A stretch of 64,000 bases of DNA from the sequence record OQ873415.1; one strand, 5' to 3'. Within the stretch, counting starts at the first letter, position 1. Each line of letters begins with the position of its first letter. Below, one piece after another: positions 20,345-55,252 of the stretch. The notes beneath the pieces were generated by a model, which was given only the letters and a program-made list of their open reading frames with translations, made no database searches and had not been told where the DNA came from. The translations under genes were made by a program, and so were the position numbers. The stretch comes from Escherichia phage PECP20.

Positions 20345-20713
20345 TTATGCAACTTTAATCCAATTGTCTAAATTTAAAACACCTTTGGCTTTCATTTTTT
20401 CGATCAGGTTATCTGCTGTAATGCGTCCATTTTGATACCATGTAACATCTTCAGAGTAACCAGTTTCTTCGTCAACATATGTTTCTGAGCGAATTTTACC
20501 GGTAATAATAGTTTTTAATTCGTATGTGTCACCTGTGAAAAAGTTTGCTAACACAATTTTCCAAGAGAAATCATTTGAAGGACCTTCAGGGGTCATACAA
20601 CTTACGAACTCAAATTGCTCTTTGTATAACATCCACTGGAATTCTTTAATTTCGATAGCTTTATAACCGTCGTGTTCTTTACATTTGATGTATGAGTTCA
20701 GATTGATTTTCAT
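20345..20713 (-). CDS. hypothetical protein (122 aa)
   Basis: ORF with its own upstream promoter cassette. Confidence 0.5.
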   Translation of the reverse strand: MKINLNSYIKCKEHDGYKAIEIKEFQWMLYKEQFEFVSCMTPEGPSNDFSWKIVLANFFTGDTYELKTIITGKIRSETYVDEETGYSEDVTWYQNGRITADNLIEKMKAKGVLNLDNWIKVA

Positions 20714-20755
20714 TTTATTCTCCAGTTTGTTTTATTGATTAGGTGGTACAAGTCT

Positions 20756-20784
20756 ATAGTAACACATCCTACAGGAGAGTAAAC
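20756..20784 (-). promoter_or_regulatory. early promoter
   Basis: Minus strand GTTTAC (plus 20779-20784), 17 nt, TACTAT (plus 20756-20761). Confidence 0.45.
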
Positions 20785-20810
20785 ATCTTTTTAAACTTTT
20801 TCTGCCCTAA

Positions 20811-20838
20811 ACGCACAAAAGGGAGACCGAAGTCTCCC
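20811..20838 (-). terminator. rho-independent terminator
   Basis: Minus strand GGGAGACTTCGGTCTCCC then TTTTGTGCG; the 24 nt including the hairpin are identical to the gene 32 terminator at 35551-35573. Confidence 0.65.
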
Positions 20839-20843
20839 TAAAA

Positions 20844-21023
20844 TTATGCAACAACCTTTCCAAAACGAGAAGCATCATCTCGAAGAACTGCACGTGCTCT
20901 GCGCATGATCTTCTCAACTGTTTGATTAATACGAGAGTTCGACCCACGCTTGTATCCAGCGCGTTTAGAGGTACCATCAACTTTCTTTTCAACTGCTTTC
21001 TTTGCTTTAGCTTGTTTTGCCAT
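20844..21023 (-). CDS. small highly basic protein (59 aa)
   Basis: Hand-translated minus-strand ORF MAKQAKAKKAVEKKVDGTSKRAGYKRGSNSRINQTVEKIMRRARAVLRDDASRFGKVVA, ending 5 nt before the terminator hairpin; absent from the track because it is under 60 aa. Confidence 0.5.
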   Translation of the reverse strand: MAKQAKAKKAVEKKVDGTSKRAGYKRGSNSRINQTVEKIMRRARAVLRDDASRFGKVVA

Positions 21024-21286
21024 TATAAATTCTCTTTAAATGAAAATGCAGGACTTATTGACATTGCCTGCGCAAGCCCTCATGGGGAACATAGGTTTTG
21101 GATATTTAACGACAGGATAACCATAAACCCGTCATCATACCAACCACGACTTAGACAGATAACCTTTTTCTGACGCGTGATAGTACAAAATACATTCAAG
21201 AGGTACACCGTAAAACTGCCGGGGTCTTAAAACTATAATGATTCGCAAATCATTAATCAGACAATTCGACGGCTCCTCGATTTAAC

Positions 21287-21535
21287 TTACTTCAGGGTAA
21301 TAACAAAATGACGTACTGCTTTACGAGCTGCTGAAGCCAAAGGCTTAGCATATTTCAGTTCATCTTTTGCTTCCAGTTCAGCAGCCAGAGTAGCCTGAGC
21401 AGGATTCAGATGTTTGAAATATCGCAGGATTTCCAGTGCTTCGGCTTCAACATCAATTGAAGCGCCGTAGTTTTCGTGACCGTTATTCCATGCGTTGCGT
21501 TGCAGATCAAGAGCGTGTTGTAGTTGTTTAATCAT
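21287..21535 (-). CDS. rIII: rIII lysis-inhibition accessory protein
   Basis: 82 aa; MIKQLQHALDLQRNAWNNGHENYGASIDVEAEALEILRYFKHLNPAQ, T4 rIII-like. Confidence 0.9.
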   Translation of the reverse strand: MIKQLQHALDLQRNAWNNGHENYGASIDVEAEALEILRYFKHLNPAQATLAAELEAKDELKYAKPLASAARKAVRHFVITLK

Positions 21536-21651
21536 TTTAAATTCTCAATTCGAGATAATATTTAGTAGCCACGTTCGTCTGAATTTCACCTTCTTTCGAC
21601 AAGTCTCTCAGTTGTAGGCTACCGCTTAGAAGAGTGTTCTCTTCATATAGT

Positions 21652-21659
21652 TATTTATA
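21652..21659 (-). promoter_or_regulatory. late promoter (TATAAATA) upstream of rIII
   Basis: Plus-strand TATTTATA at 21652-21659, abutting the gene 31 stop. Confidence 0.45.
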
Positions 21660-21992
21660 TCACTTATAAAGACACGGAATAGCTTTATAGTGGCATGTTA
21701 CGAATTTCTGTTTAATTTCTTTAGGTTGTTTAAGTCCCAAAGCCACAAATGGATGTGGAACATTTCGAATTTGTCCAACTGGTAGTGGAGTCAAATCACC
21801 GACTTCAACAAAACCTTCAGGAACATCAGGACCTACAGAATGAACTACACATAGTTCAGGAACTTCACCTTGAACACGTTTACCAATCACAAGTCCTGAT
21901 TCGGTAACTTCTTCATCACCTGCTTGAGCGGGTTCAGAAACCAGAATGACATATTCACCAACAGCACGAATTGGGAGTTGTACTTCAGACAT
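21660..21992 (-). CDS. 31: gp31 co-chaperonin (GroES analogue)
   Basis: 110 aa; [60 protein letters not shown], near-identical to remembered T4 gp31. Confidence 0.95.
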
Positions 21993-22049: not shown

Positions 22050-22358
22050 TTACATAAGAAGCAAACGTTCGACCGGAGTACCATCAACCGAAATTACTTT
22101 ATCAAGGCGGAAAGAACGCCACTGACCTAACTTGGTATCGAATGCTCGAACTGATTCACGAGGTTCATAACGAACTTCTGTTGCCGGATTGTTATTTTCA
22201 TATTTGACTTCAAGTTCATCGCGCGAAGCAAACATAGTGCGTACATCACCGTTAGCCTTTTCAAATACAACACAATGAACGCCTACAGACAGAATAGTTT
22301 TAATACGTTCACGAAGAACCATAGTTTCTTGTTCAGTTAAAATCATATTATTCACCAC
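22050..22358 (-). CDS. hypothetical protein, 31.1 position (102 aa)
   Basis: ORF between cd and gene 31. Confidence 0.6.
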   Translation of the reverse strand: MVNNMILTEQETMVLRERIKTILSVGVHCVVFEKANGDVRTMFASRDELEVKYENNNPATEVRYEPRESVRAFDTKLGQWRSFRLDKVISVDGTPVERLLLM

Positions 22359-22929
22359 AAAAGTTTCGGATTTGTTCCCAATTCAGAGAACGAAGATTAT
22401 TACGAGAGTACTGAATTACTTCAATGCCAGCTTGTTTTAGAATGTCTGCCCAATTTTCAGGAGATCTGTCGTATAATTCTGCGTATACGACCTTTTTAAT
22501 ACCTGACTGCGTAATAGCTTTAGTACAATCAGGACATGGAGAAAGCGTCGTATATAACGTAGCACCTTCAATAGAATTACCTTTACGAGCGGCAAACAAA
22601 ATTGCATTCAATTCTGCATGGATTTCATTATTAGCAGACCATGCACTATGAGCAGCTCGATGTTCTTTGGCTAAAACAAAATTATCTACCCGTCCAAATG
22701 CTGTAGTGCCTTCTTTATGTCCAGCAACGATGACTGGGATTGGTTTATTCTTCAACCAACCATTTTCAGATGCATGTTCGCAACAGTTAACGCCACCTGC
22801 AGGTGAACCGTTATATCCAGTAGAGATAATGCGTCCATCTTTTTCAATGACGGCACCAACTTTCCATGAACAACATTTTGATTCTTGAGAAATCAGATAT
22901 GCAATCTGAAGGTATGTGCTAGCTTTCAT
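22348..22929 (-). CDS. cd: dCMP deaminase
   Basis: 193 aa; zinc motifs HAELNAI and SPCPDC; T4 Cd-like. Confidence 0.95.
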   Translation of the reverse strand: MKASTYLQIAYLISQESKCCSWKVGAVIEKDGRIISTGYNGSPAGGVNCCEHASENGWLKNKPIPVIVAGHKEGTTAFGRVDNFVLAKEHRAAHSAWSANNEIHAELNAILFAARKGNSIEGATLYTTLSPCPDCTKAITQSGIKKVVYAELYDRSPENWADILKQAGIEVIQYSRNNLRSLNWEQIRNFCGE

Positions 22930-23921
22930 TATTGAACCTTATTAATATAAGTTAACAGCTCTTTAGTTTGTTCCCAACTGATGCACGCATCGGTAACGGA
23001 AACGCCATAGGACATATTATCAGAAATTTTTTGATTTCCTTCATGTAGGAACGATTCTATCATAATTCCTTTGACCAAATCATTAGCTGCTAAATTTTTA
23101 CCAATACCAATTTGATTGCTATAATGCCCATCAGCGTTTGCATGGCTACAGTCAACCATTACATAATGATTCAGACCTACTGCCCTTGCTTTGTTAGAAG
23201 CTTCTTGAATATCAGAAGAATGATAGTTCGGACCGTTGGTCCCGCCACGCAATACGATATGCGTATTCTGATTACCTTCAGCTTCAACAATGCCTACAGT
23301 ACCATCGACGTCCATACCCATATACCGATGAGGCCAGGCAGCACTATACATCGCGTCTGTAGCTACTTTAATAGAACCATTGGTTGCGTTCTTGAAGCCT
23401 ACGCACATCGGTAGACCTGAAGCAATTTCACGATGTGTCTGACTTTCAGTCGTACGGGCGCCAATAGCAACCCATGAGAAAATACCAGAAAGATACTTAA
23501 TCGTGAATGGGTCTAATACTTCAGTTGCTAATGGAAGTCCCATACGTAGAAGTTTACGACACAATGTTCGTGCAACTATAAGACCGTGGTTCATATCAAA
23601 ACTTCCGTCAAGATATGGATCATTTACAAGACCTTTCCAACCTACGGTAGTTCGAGGCTTTTCAAAATAAACGCGCATCACTAACAGAACATTAGGAAGA
23701 CGAGTTTGAAGTTCAGCCAGACGTTTGCCGTATTCAACAGCAGCAATAGGGTCATGAATTGAACAAGGACCTACAACAATAAGTTTGCGTGGGTCTTCAC
23801 CGTTCATAATCGAATTAACTTGTTCGCGATGAGAAGCCACTTGTGATGCGTAAGCTTCCGACAAAGGAATAATCTCAGCCAGTTCTTTTGGAGAAATAAG
23901 TTTTCCGACGACAGGTAACAT
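22929..23921 (-). CDS. class-I DAHP synthase (3-deoxy-7-phosphoheptulonate synthase, AroG/F/H family) homologue
   Basis: 330 aa with AroG signature blocks VVGPCSIHD, MRVYFEKPRTTVGWKGL, AIGARTTESQTHRE, CVGFKN, IVLRGG, MVDCSHAN, GIMIESFLHEGNQ; stop overlaps the cd ATG; SD AAGGA. Confidence 0.8.
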   Translation of the reverse strand: MLPVVGKLISPKELAEIIPLSEAYASQVASHREQVNSIMNGEDPRKLIVVGPCSIHDPIAAVEYGKRLAELQTRLPNVLLVMRVYFEKPRTTVGWKGLVNDPYLDGSFDMNHGLIVARTLCRKLLRMGLPLATEVLDPFTIKYLSGIFSWVAIGARTTESQTHREIASGLPMCVGFKNATNGSIKVATDAMYSAAWPHRYMGMDVDGTVGIVEAEGNQNTHIVLRGGTNGPNYHSSDIQEASNKARAVGLNHYVMVDCSHANADGHYSNQIGIGKNLAANDLVKGIMIESFLHEGNQKISDNMSYGVSVTDACISWEQTKELLTYINKVQ

Positions 23922-35550: not shown

Positions 35551-35573
35551 CAAAAGGGAGACCGAAGTCTCCC
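35551..35573 (-). terminator. rho-independent terminator downstream of gene 32
   Basis: Minus strand GGGAGACTTCGGTCTCCC then TTTTG, 6 nt after the gene 32 stop. Confidence 0.7.
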
Positions 35574-53939: not shown

Positions 53940-54080
53940 TCACCATATTAATGAACGAATAACCATTATAACATCTGAAATGAAAAGCACTACTTGGATT
54001 AGTCCAAACATCACACCGTAGTACAGAATCGTAAACAACAACAAGAGCCCGAAGGCTCCTGCTAAGATTTTCTTAATCAT
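53940..54080 (-). CDS. small hydrophobic membrane protein (46 aa)
   Basis: Hand-translated MIKKILAGAFGLLLLFTILYYGVMFGLIQVVLFISDVIMVIRSLIW; start overlaps the upstream stop (TAATG); ac-like position. Confidence 0.4.
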   Translation of the reverse strand: MIKKILAGAFGLLLLFTILYYGVMFGLIQVVLFISDVIMVIRSLIW

Positions 54081-54226
54081 TACTCGCCTTTTAACACGTT
54101 AAGAAGAGCTAAGACCGCTAAGGTACCTTGTGATACGGCCTGTTGAAATACCGTTGTTTCGCCTGTAACTAAAGTGTTAACGAATAAAAACGACCAACAC
54201 AACAATGCAATAATCCATGATACCAT
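54080..54226 (-). CDS. small hydrophobic membrane protein (48 aa)
   Basis: Hand-translated MVSWIIALLCWSFLFVNTLVTGETTVFQQAVSQGTLAVLALLNVLKGE with SD GAGGT. Confidence 0.4.
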   Translation of the reverse strand: MVSWIIALLCWSFLFVNTLVTGETTVFQQAVSQGTLAVLALLNVLKGE

Positions 54227-54278
54227 TTTAATTACCTCACAAATAAATTAAAGGCCTAACTTAATAGGCCTGTATAAA

Positions 54279-55023: not shown

Positions 55024-55061
55024 GTAGGACTACTATACCATAATCCTACTGTGTTGTAAAC
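55024..55061 (-). promoter_or_regulatory. early promoter with palindrome
   Basis: Minus strand GTTTAC (plus 55056-55061); inverted repeat GTAGGA/TCCTAC (55024-55049) around the -10. Confidence 0.4.
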
Positions 55062-55252
55062 AATTAAATTACATTAAAATATGTTAAAGCCAACCATGTT
55101 CCAGTGAACGAACATGCAATGTAAAAACCGTATCACAAAATGTTCTTAGTACAATAAGAAGTGCATTTTTCATAAGTACCTCAACACAATTGAAAATATT
55201 ATACAAATCATTGGGATACTAAGCAACCATATTCCTATCCACATTTTAGAGC

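Follow-up and report, generated by a model that had tools for sequence, protein, structure and literature searches.

The leader of the T4 gene 32 mRNA carries an H-type pseudoknot that lies tens of nucleotides upstream of the ribosome site and serves translational autoregulation. In pistol ribozymes the loop of a P1 hairpin forms a pseudoknot with a downstream strand (PMC4604425), and the conserved nucleotides include purine32-G33 and G40-C41-G42 (PMC6154101). T4-related phages also contain PeSLs, stem-loops placed immediately upstream of a sigma-70-like early promoter (TTTACW-N17-TAYWAT) and dispersed in many copies (PMC4122927). Here we describe a pseudoknot, domain A, in the spacer between rIII and gene 30.9 of a T4-type coliphage; it belongs to an RNA family that occurs across T4-type phages and had not been catalogued before. 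Few viruses have been dissected as thoroughly as T4, yet its own counterpart spacer of 244 nt (130541-130784) has no annotation in the reference record. We found no paper on the rIII-30.9 spacer in the open literature, though a brief mention in older subscription papers on rIII is possible; Raudonikiene and Nivinskas reportedly published on this gene in the early 1990s. The main text of a 2023 survey of more than ten thousand candidate viral RNA structures contains none of the T4-related terms searched for.

The spacer between rIII and gene 30.9

The 64-kb stretch of DNA analysed here (the window) belongs to a Mosigvirus-like T4-type coliphage. When the spacer was compared together with the genes on either side of it (window 20700-21700, a query of 1 kb), Escherichia phage CCU7 proved 100% identical, and ATK47 and PhAPEC2 about 98%. 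All genes around the spacer lie on the minus strand (Table 1). The first-pass annotation had described a region of about 260 nt between rIII and a small basic gene, directly upstream of a 59-aa ORF; both statements hold, the spacer measuring 263 nt and gene 30.9 following it directly on the coding strand. In comparison with relatives, gene 30.9 has a coding-type substitution pattern. We found no Pfam or PDB relative and no recognisable RNA-binding domain for gp30.9, and a single-sequence AlphaFold model has a long C-terminal helix (mean pLDDT 73). The terminator that follows the gene is annotated as such in the ATK47 and PhAPEC2 records.

Table 1. Genes, signals and predicted RNA domains in and around the rIII-30.9 spacer (window positions)
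Feature	Position	Strand	Remarks
dCMP deaminase gene	22348-22929	-	
Gene 31.1	22050-22358	-	
Co-chaperonin gp31 gene	21660-21992	-	
Late-promoter-like TATAAATA	21652-21659	-	upstream of rIII
rIII	21287-21535	-	phrog_1457 match; upstream cistron, same transcription unit as 30.9
rIII-30.9 spacer, 263 nt	21024-21286	-	predicted multi-domain non-coding RNA region
Domain F, long imperfect hairpin	21200-21278	-	outer stem GAGG...CCTC; contains GGAG
Apical hairpin of F, TAATGATT-TGCG-AATCATTA	21236-21255	-	
Domain G, hairpin TTGTACTATCACG/CGTGGTTGGTATGA	21135-21188	-	G-U-rich, optional cassette; RNAalifold
Inner hairpin of G, CAGA...TCTG	21156-21172	-	
Domain A, H-type pseudoknot, about 45 nt	21085-21140	-	pseudoknot 21094-21133; covariance-model match
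S1 of A, GACGGG with CCTGTC	21128-21133 with 21111-21116	-	
S2 of A, GGTT (hairpin loop) with AACC	21119-21122 with 21094-21097	-	3' arm 13 nt past S1
Loop 3 of A, GTTAAATATCCAA	21098-21110	-	
Domain B, mini-hairpin GTT-CCCC-ATGA-GGG	21073-21090	-	followed by conserved CTTG
Domain C, hairpin GCAGG-14 nt-CCTGC with ATTTTC tail	21042-21071	-	hairpin 21048-21071
Shine-Dalgarno-like AAGAGA of 30.9	21031-21036	-	read from sequence
ATG of gene 30.9	21021-23	-	read from sequence
Gene 30.9, 59-aa basic protein	20844-21023	-	phrog_1427 match, phrog without assigned function
Terminator hairpin GGGAGACTTCGGTCTCCC and T run	20815-20838	-	closes rIII-spacer-30.9 unit; read from sequence
Gene 30.8	20345-20713	-	

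Transcription presumably runs from rIII straight through the spacer into 30.9. In T4 RNA-seq data, 30.9 reaches about 0.74 of the counts per nucleotide of rIII (supplement of PMC6024815); the 30.9 RNA of T4 has been classed as 'early', and gp30.9 was not detected (supplement of PMC9697503). A scan for sigma-70 promoters and terminators returned nothing in the spacer, and a manual search found none of the conserved early (GTTTAC-N17-TATAAT), middle (MotA box) or late (TATAAATA) promoters there. A weak early-promoter-like site, TTTACG-N16-TATTTT, is present in F/G and is deleted in T4. The TATGAT just 5' of S1 was considered as a -10 box and rejected for an S1-containing RNA; it is also missing in some lineages. 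In the literature and supplements searched we found no usable table of transcription start sites.

That no ORF exceeds 18 codons, as had been stated for both strands, is correct for ATG ORFs on the gene strand, where the longest has exactly 18 (MFPMRACAGNVNKSCIFI), but not for either strand, as the plus strand has a 26-codon ATG ORF within the spacer (21040-21120). With GTG and TTG starts, the minus strand has ORFs of 42 codons (21080-21208) and 37 codons (21135-21248), and stop-free frames of 48-49 codons are present. At least one ORF-poor stretch of the window is longer than the spacer. None of the spacer ORFs of 18-42 codons is conserved among relatives; an ATGATG... uORF and the 18-codon MFP... 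ORF were considered as small genes and rejected on this ground. Coding calls in the spacers of relatives are sporadic, small and mutually inconsistent, and a homologous conserved protein gene is absent from the spacer in all relatives compared.

The spacer is widespread and well conserved. A query with its 263 nt matches 773 phage records in GenBank, 518 of which cover at least 80% of it, and among 40 IMG/VR loci found through rIII the spacer measures 120-416 nt wherever a full-length 30.9 is present. In an alignment of relatives, blocks that hardly vary are broken up by 1-nt indels and by segments, corresponding to whole domains, that have been cleanly gained or lost. Between T4 and the window, rIII has 87% nucleotide identity (20 of 35 four-fold sites identical) and gene 30.9 has 92% (26/30), compared with 94% for the spacer block A-B-C and 98% for domain F. 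The Dhakavirus-type relative L017 has 82% in rIII (four-fold sites 18/34) and 68% in gene 30.9 (7/19), and again 94% in A-B-C and 95% in domain F. By these identities, the spacer changes more slowly than do synonymous sites in the flanking genes. Part of the high identity across lineages could reflect recent horizontal exchange, so that purifying selection need not be its sole cause. The predicted folding energy is ordinary (z = -0.71 for the sense strand, z = -0.32 for the antisense strand). It is conservation together with covariation, and not the absence of ORFs or the stability of the fold, that singles out the spacer.

An earlier proposal that the spacer is the remnant of a deleted gene does not survive this comparison. 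No relative has a protein gene or an ORF of this kind here, the spacer exceeds its flanks in conservation, 1-nt indels are tolerated, and base pairs show compensatory changes. That frame-breaking indels are tolerated in slowly evolving DNA shows the spacer to be non-coding and under selection; the alignments largely refute a decayed gene.

Pseudoknot A and its neighbouring domains

Read 5' to 3' on the minus strand, the spacer consists of domains F-G-A-B-C followed by the ribosome site of 30.9. The evidence from covariation is carried by the pseudoknot in domain A, which was absent from the first-pass annotation. The family consensus is an S1 of about 6 bp, GUU-N3-(S2 5' arm)-AUC, CGU(U/A)AA-N5-8-AAA and the S2 3' arm, and the window agrees with it throughout. 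The unpaired GUU of loop 1, which follows the 5' arm of S1, is invariant, and CGU(U/A)AA...AAA of loop 3, which follows the 3' arm of S1, is almost invariant; within lineages the loop sequences do not vary at all.

Both helices change while remaining paired. Among distant relatives S1 occurs as GAC/GTC, GTC/GAC, GGC/GCC, GTG/CAC, GTT/AAC and ATG/CAT, with inner pairs TGG/CCA, TAG/CTA and GAG/CTC. S2 has about ten variants that keep complementarity, including GGTT/AACC, AGTT/AACT, AGGTT/AACCT, TGGT/ACCA, GTTGGTT/AACCAAC, GGTAGT/ACTACT, GTGAG/CTCAC, GATGG/CCATC and TTTTGGTT/AACCAAAA. In a 30-sequence alignment, 83.9% of the cells of S1 and S2 are paired, compared with 32-48% when the partners are slid, and changes on both sides of a helix occur in 48 cells, compared with 17.3 +/- 3.1 after shuffling; none of 500 shuffles reached the observed covariation score. 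Since the model used to fit the alignment includes S1 and leaves out S2, the support for S2 from covariation is independent of that model. RNAalifold applied to close relatives alone mis-folded the region of A into nested alternatives, and distant sequences were required to recover the pseudoknot.

The data favour a structured RNA on the gene strand. In an anchored strand test, allowing G-U adds 33 pairs and the A-C rule that would apply to the opposite strand adds 12, a modest effect; an earlier fixed-column version of this test was uninformative on account of register shifts and was replaced by the anchored one. The spacer folds at -62 kcal/mol in the sense and -47 kcal/mol in the antisense orientation. 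A structured RNA, either a small regulatory RNA or a structured 5' UTR, had been suggested for this region before. Folding and comparative alignment with related phages bear out the structure, which is conserved, lies on the gene strand and covaries in S1 and S2; the option of a simple 5' UTR specific to 30.9 fares less well, as A also occurs in tRNA clusters. Of the two hairpins named at that time both exist. GCAGG...CCTGC has its arms at 21048-21052 and 21067-21071 (domain C), and the loop between TAATGATT and AATCATTA is the 4-nt TGCG, not TGCGA.

The domains flanking A are conserved to different degrees and are arranged in different ways. Domain F is 95-98% identical to T4 and Dhakavirus-type relatives and shows compensatory or wobble changes at pairs 20-73, 24-69, 31-46 and 32-45 (RNAalifold, seven close sequences); in L033 its apex is shortened. 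Domain G is absent from T4 as a single clean block, its inner stem changes from CAGA/TCTG to CAGC/GCTG in two relatives (L006 and L023), and in five others (L004, L005, L015, L016 and L018) it is replaced by a 140-nt domain D, which also shows compensatory changes. The B motif, GT(A/T)CCC..GGGCTTG, is present in nearly all relatives, placed after A, before A or about 300 nt away. Domain B and the features near the Shine-Dalgarno sequence show little covariation, and the B hairpin is a candidate rather than a proven structure.

Domain C is always the last domain ahead of the 30.9 ribosome site, and among relatives it is swapped helix for helix. Seven unrelated stems occupy this position, namely GCAGG, AACTGG, GAGAGGT, GGCTCTA, GGGAGC, GTGGAG and GGGAAC, and the hairpin loop is exactly inverted between L022 and L028. 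Hairpin C was also considered as an intrinsic terminator or riboswitch platform and rejected; its U-tract is poor in many relatives and the terminator scan was empty. A further optional hairpin, domain E, lies beside the rIII stop in T4 and is missing from the window. Distant relatives have a small hairpin over the Shine-Dalgarno sequence, UCC(A)..(U)GGA. Across Tevenvirinae the observed orders include F-G-A-B-C (the window), B-A-C, B-D-A-C and A-E-D-B-C.

Distribution of A and its possible functions

A covariance model of A, R1, gives a single match in the window (72.4 bits, E about 1e-13), where the motifs of A and those of the rest of the spacer are single-copy. It matches once in each of the 34 Tevenvirinae loci (34/34) that encode a full-length gp30.9, and in every Tevenvirinae locus A is upstream of 30.9 on the same strand. 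At E<=1, R1 has no match in distant T4-likes with another gene after rIII, and it has none where a 44-aa 30.9-like gene abuts rIII; L037 and L084 have a 30.9-like gene and no spacer. Pattern scans followed by R1 added 17 metagenomic members, and Serratia phage 4S has A in the rIII-30.9 context. Among 185,579 bacterial and archaeal genomes, a pattern scan picked up a single chance match, rejected by R1.

A is also found away from gene 30.9. In the IMG/VR contig L113 it lies in 850 nt of non-coding sequence, with topoisomerase gp52 on one side and an unrelated 119-aa ORF on the other; for a small ORF of this contig an ArfA-like identity was rejected, that ORF being DUF7230. On two environmental contigs A precedes tRNA genes, 2 nt upstream of tRNA-Met in L147 and 82 nt upstream of tRNA-Lys in L141. 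Thirty Vibrio phage records contain A, and the vibriophage members are Schizotequatrovirus. In nt-1/VS2-type vibriophages, as in L147, A is 0-2 nt upstream of tRNA-Met. In VS2 it abuts tRNA-Met within a cluster of 11 tRNAs, and a 161-nt stretch of the nt-1 record with A and the start of tRNA-Met is identical to VS2. In KVP40 A lies in an unannotated 504-nt gap from tRNA-Arg to tRNA-Met, about 90 nt upstream of tRNA-Met. The approximately 45 nt of A are the only part shared among the rIII-30.9, tRNA and other contexts. Its presence inside vibriophage tRNA clusters and beside tRNA genes on environmental contigs argues that A is probably a portable RNA module and not a switch specific for 30.9, although a link to gene 30.9 may still exist.

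The comparisons establish that the spacer is non-coding and under selection, that it has the pseudoknot and hairpin structures, that A belongs to one family in the contexts given above, and that the sense strand is favoured; from these we infer transcription through the spacer, partner binding and a role in processing or stability. Our preferred reading, which we hold with a probability of about 0.45, is that A and its flanking hairpins form an autonomous factor-binding module that sets a processing or stability boundary on its own transcript. The spacer would be transcribed on the minus strand within the rIII-to-30.9 message, and the transcript would fold into domains F, G, A, B and C, autonomous and strung one after another, with A as the invariant core. 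A conserved partner would recognise A, be it a protein (host or core-phage) or an RNA machine, and the invariant unpaired nucleotides of A suggest that this partner is specific and common to enterobacterial and Vibrio systems. A with its flanking hairpins may then act on the transcript that carries it, marking or shaping a boundary for processing and stability at which the RNA downstream would be uncoupled from the message upstream. In the window this downstream RNA would be the 30.9 mRNA, beginning with hairpin C; in vibriophages it would be a tRNA-Met precursor. The variable order of the domains and the position of A before tRNAs sit uneasily with a classical riboswitch or with an operator that serves 30.9 alone.

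In several respects the same data fit a trans-acting role equally well. Under this reading, which we consider doubtful on balance, the spacer or A with its neighbours would be cut from the polycistronic transcript and accumulate as one or more stable small RNAs like rnaC/rnaD. Acting elsewhere, these might titrate a host factor or defence system as a decoy or sponge, or might combine with the basic gp30.9 into a particle. Where A is embedded in a tRNA cluster, cleavage by RNase P would free it; its loop sequences are invariant within lineages, and it co-occurs with full-length gp30.9 in 34/34 Tevenvirinae loci; the beads-on-a-string domains, with variable order and optional cassettes G, D and E, are typical of accessory functions. 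However, A has no sequence similarity to rnaC or rnaD, it is present without gp30.9 in L113 and the vibriophages, and gp30.9 offers no recognisable RNA-binding domain. It is improbable that A is instead a cis-regulator specific to 30.9, either a riboswitch-like aptamer or a translational operator (bound, for example, by gp30.9 as in T4 gene 32), that would govern ribosome access or read-through at hairpin C. The constant place of A upstream of 30.9 on the same strand in Tevenvirinae would agree with this, as would the small and basic gp30.9, the hairpin UCC(A)..(U)GGA over the Shine-Dalgarno sequence of distant relatives, and an H-type pseudoknot with an A-rich loop 3 like those of the preQ1-I and SAM-II aptamers. 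In vibriophages and on environmental contigs, however, A abuts tRNA genes with neither an ORF nor an expression platform; in some lineages 150-330 nt of independent domains, changing in order, separate it from the ribosome site. Helix 2 never overlaps that site, which tRNA genes lack altogether, C is not a consistent terminator, no riboswitch model matches, and L037 and L084 have a 30.9-like gene but no spacer.

The resemblance to pistol raises the possibility of a self-cleaving ribozyme, whether a distant relative of pistol or a convergent form, that would cut the transcript beside hairpin B, with A supplying P1, the pseudoknot and the linker and B supplying P3. We regard this as quite improbable. 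The topology is the same, with the P1 loop pairing to a strand between possible P2 and P3, the 9-mer CGUUAAAUA after P1 recurs, a possible 3-bp P2 (CAA/UUG) stays wobble-compatible in CUAA and CCGA variants, and pistol ribozymes are phage-associated. Yet equivalents of the catalytic G40-C41-G42 and of purine32-G33 are absent, the junction is GC or AC and not GU, P2 lacks covariation and is broken in L040, and the Rfam Pistol model has no match at E<=10 in an 86-nt search. B, moreover, can lie upstream of A or 300 nt away, and KVP40-type phages have no clear B. A DNA-level element, be it a replication origin repeat, a recombination or homing site or a PeSL-type promoter-terminator cassette, is highly improbable, as is a decayed protein gene. 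One GenBank record labels 10 nt here as 'ori type 2 repeat', the domain mosaic suggests frequent recombination, and both the inverted loop of hairpin C (L022 vs L028) and the weak promoter-like site in F/G would agree with a DNA-level role. Against this, covariation in a helix that joins a loop to a distant strand is to be expected of single-stranded RNA only; each motif is present once in the window, whereas PeSLs are dispersed; and the promoter-like site is deleted in T4. A broader reading, tentative and with the odds against it, is that A and B together form a new functional RNA class in the core of the T4 superfamily, as a small pistol-related ribozyme or as an element that binds RNA polymerase, an RNase or the ribosome and so determines what becomes of its own transcript.

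Taken together, the covarying pseudoknot, a conservation above that of the neighbouring genes and a wide recurrence turn an apparently empty gap into a concrete, testable RNA. Members of A come from T-even coliphages, from Serratia phages, from KVP40-type vibriophages and from metagenomic T4-likes; they constitute a new structured RNA family of phages, of which T4 itself has a copy, with solid comparative support for the fold. The catalogue of phage structured RNAs gains at least one family, and probably two. If A and B did prove to be a novel functional RNA, the spacer would be an 'RNA island' that in many coliphages also hosts a second structured RNA, the 140-nt domain D. A may reveal how T4-type phages punctuate or protect their polycistronic RNAs, or it may reveal a new ribozyme or factor-binding fold. 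The spacer RNA is accessible to deletion, compensatory mutation, probing and pull-down in a genetically tractable phage.

Comparison with known RNA elements

A search of the Rfam covariance models (Rfam 15) gave no credible match at E<=10 in positions 20500-21800 or in positions 21060-21145, and no family reached its gathering score anywhere in the 64-kb window. Rfam scans of the relatives that carry domain D and of L113 returned nothing relevant, and ARAGORN called 0 tRNA or tmRNA genes in the whole window.

With the T4 gene 32 leader A shares its fold only, both being H-type pseudoknots that precede a T-even phage gene in its 5' leader; locus and sequence are different, and A is also found beside tRNA genes and lies 70-330 nt from the ribosome site. 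The preQ1-I and SAM-II riboswitches resemble A in their compact H-type fold, A-rich third loop and invariant unpaired nucleotides. Unlike these, A has no Rfam match and no linked metabolic gene, its helix 2 is 70-330 nt from the Shine-Dalgarno sequence with variable domains between, and it can lie upstream of tRNAs; a riboswitch of this type was rejected for want of an expression platform. PeSLs and the spacer are alike as intergenic stem-loops in a plastic region, where modules are gained, lost and reordered between close relatives. PeSLs are short, however, whereas the spacer has single-copy domains, no conserved promoter and covariation of the RNA type that includes a pseudoknot. We rejected a PeSL or dispersed-repeat cassette, the motifs being unique in the window and the sole promoter-like site weak and deleted in T4.

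Like A, T4 rnaC and rnaD (species 1 and 2) are non-coding RNAs of T4-type phages that lie among tRNA genes. In KVP40, nt-1 and VS2, A occupies the gap after tRNA-Arg, as rnaD/rnaC do in T4; in T-even coliphages, by contrast, A is between rIII and 30.9, outside the tRNA cluster. Homology was rejected, blastn-short giving only chance words of 8-11 nt, and R1 had no match in the T4 tRNA region with filters off.

The closest fold is that of pistol, for which the Rfam Pistol model and the env25 structure 5K7C served as reference. Both have a short P1 and a pseudoknot between its loop and a downstream strand, and in A both helices covary. Both have an A-rich linker after P1, in which CGUUAAAUA is identical to the env25 sequence (PMC6101554), both are phage-associated, and hairpin B follows the pseudoknot strand at the place of P3. 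They differ in that the P1 loop of A has 11-13 nt rather than 6 and its pseudoknot 4-7 bp. In pistol, P3 is followed by a strict 2-nt junction, usually GU, with the cleavage site, where A has GC or AC; after the pseudoknot strand A has UAUGUU or UAAGUA, and the catalytic nucleotides are missing. The P2 candidate of A amounts to 3 bp, and its variants include no double changes. The lack of a model match, the absent catalytic nucleotides, the non-GU junction and the movable B place A outside the pistol family. It is not a member, yet it is predicted to fold, and may also work, like the P1/pseudoknot core of pistol.

A multi-helix insert in the rIII-30.9 spacer

In many T-even-type phages, a multi-helix RNA of about 140 nt, here called domain D, is inserted in the spacer between rIII and 30.9, the gene of the 59-aa basic protein gp30.9. 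In some lineages it replaces G, the optional hairpin 5' of the common H-type pseudoknot A. An alignment of nine sequences shows compensatory changes at 17 of the 45 predicted pairs. Each genome has a single copy, and a search of Rfam returned no match for the domain. Domain D probably represents a second structured RNA that has not been catalogued.

Features of the window and of related loci
Feature	Location	Strand	Remark
Domain D	L004 900-1046; L024 1861-2007; L031 1770-1925		outside the window
Shorter gp30.9-like gene	L037 1735-1869; L084 1434-1568		more distant T4-likes
Non-coding stretch after gp52	L113 2457-3304		IMG/VR T4-like contig
tRNA-Arg/tRNA-Met gap	L150 1129-1544; L152 630-1133		Vibrio phage VS2; KVP40
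DAHP synthase, 330 aa	window 22929-23921	-	PF00793, E 5e-75
23-nt terminator hairpin, two identical copies	window 20816-20838, 35551-35573		CAAAAGGGAGACCGAAGTCTCCC on plus strand
Related copies of this hairpin	window 15552, 54039, 56380
Early-promoter-like repeats	window 20293, 35477, 52122, 52443	-	GTTTAC-N17-TATAAT
Stretches without open frames of at least 60 codons	window 53948-54278, 55030-55193

Rearranged and spacer-less loci

Two PD06-like loci (L044 and L045, ~1411-1620; 149.5-kb genome) have the last ~40 codons of rIII joined to the 3' end of the spacer, comprising pseudoknot A, the mini-hairpin B that follows it, hairpin C (the last before the 30.9 ribosome site), that site and the ATG. 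This indicates that the locus underwent a rearrangement or a deletion. A tRNA lies ~900 nt upstream. In L037 and L084, a 44-aa gp30.9-like basic protein is encoded right behind rIII after a gap of 9 nt, and this junction contains neither a structured spacer nor the pseudoknot.

At position C, the hairpin of L022 (~1925-1945, GAGAGGTGTAAGACCTCTC) is the exact reverse complement of that of L028 (~1772-1792, GAGAGGTCTTACACCTCTC), suggesting that the loop was flipped via recombination between the arms. The C loops of most lineages carry a recurrent TAAG motif.

Neighboring features and record labels

The DAHP synthase gene, an aromatic-amino-acid pathway gene of this phage lineage that is also annotated in ATK47, adjoins the dCMP deaminase gene. 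The two identical terminator hairpins stand far apart, and the early-promoter-like repeats make up a family. Both stretches lacking long open frames are comparable in length to the rIII-30.9 spacer or exceed it. In the GenBank record of ATK47, 10 nt just 5' of the 30.9 start (L001 1835-1844) bear the label 'ori type 2 repeat'. Small spacer ORFs are named 'glycogen branching enzyme' in several records, evidently an annotation artefact.

Non-coding stretches ending in the pseudoknot

In L113, topoisomerase gp52 is followed by ~850 nt of non-coding DNA. A partial element resembling a tRNA opens this stretch; it scores 32 bits with Rfam tRNA, over positions 10-63 only, and ARAGORN found no tRNA here. 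The stretch closes with pseudoknot A, a hairpin and a U-run, followed by a 119-aa ORF without a family match and then a 64-aa DUF7230 ORF.

Schizotequatrovirus tRNA clusters contain an unannotated non-coding gap of 400-500 nt between tRNA-Arg and tRNA-Met, rich in UUCG-capped hairpins and ending in pseudoknot A. This gap is kept in 30 Vibrio phage records.
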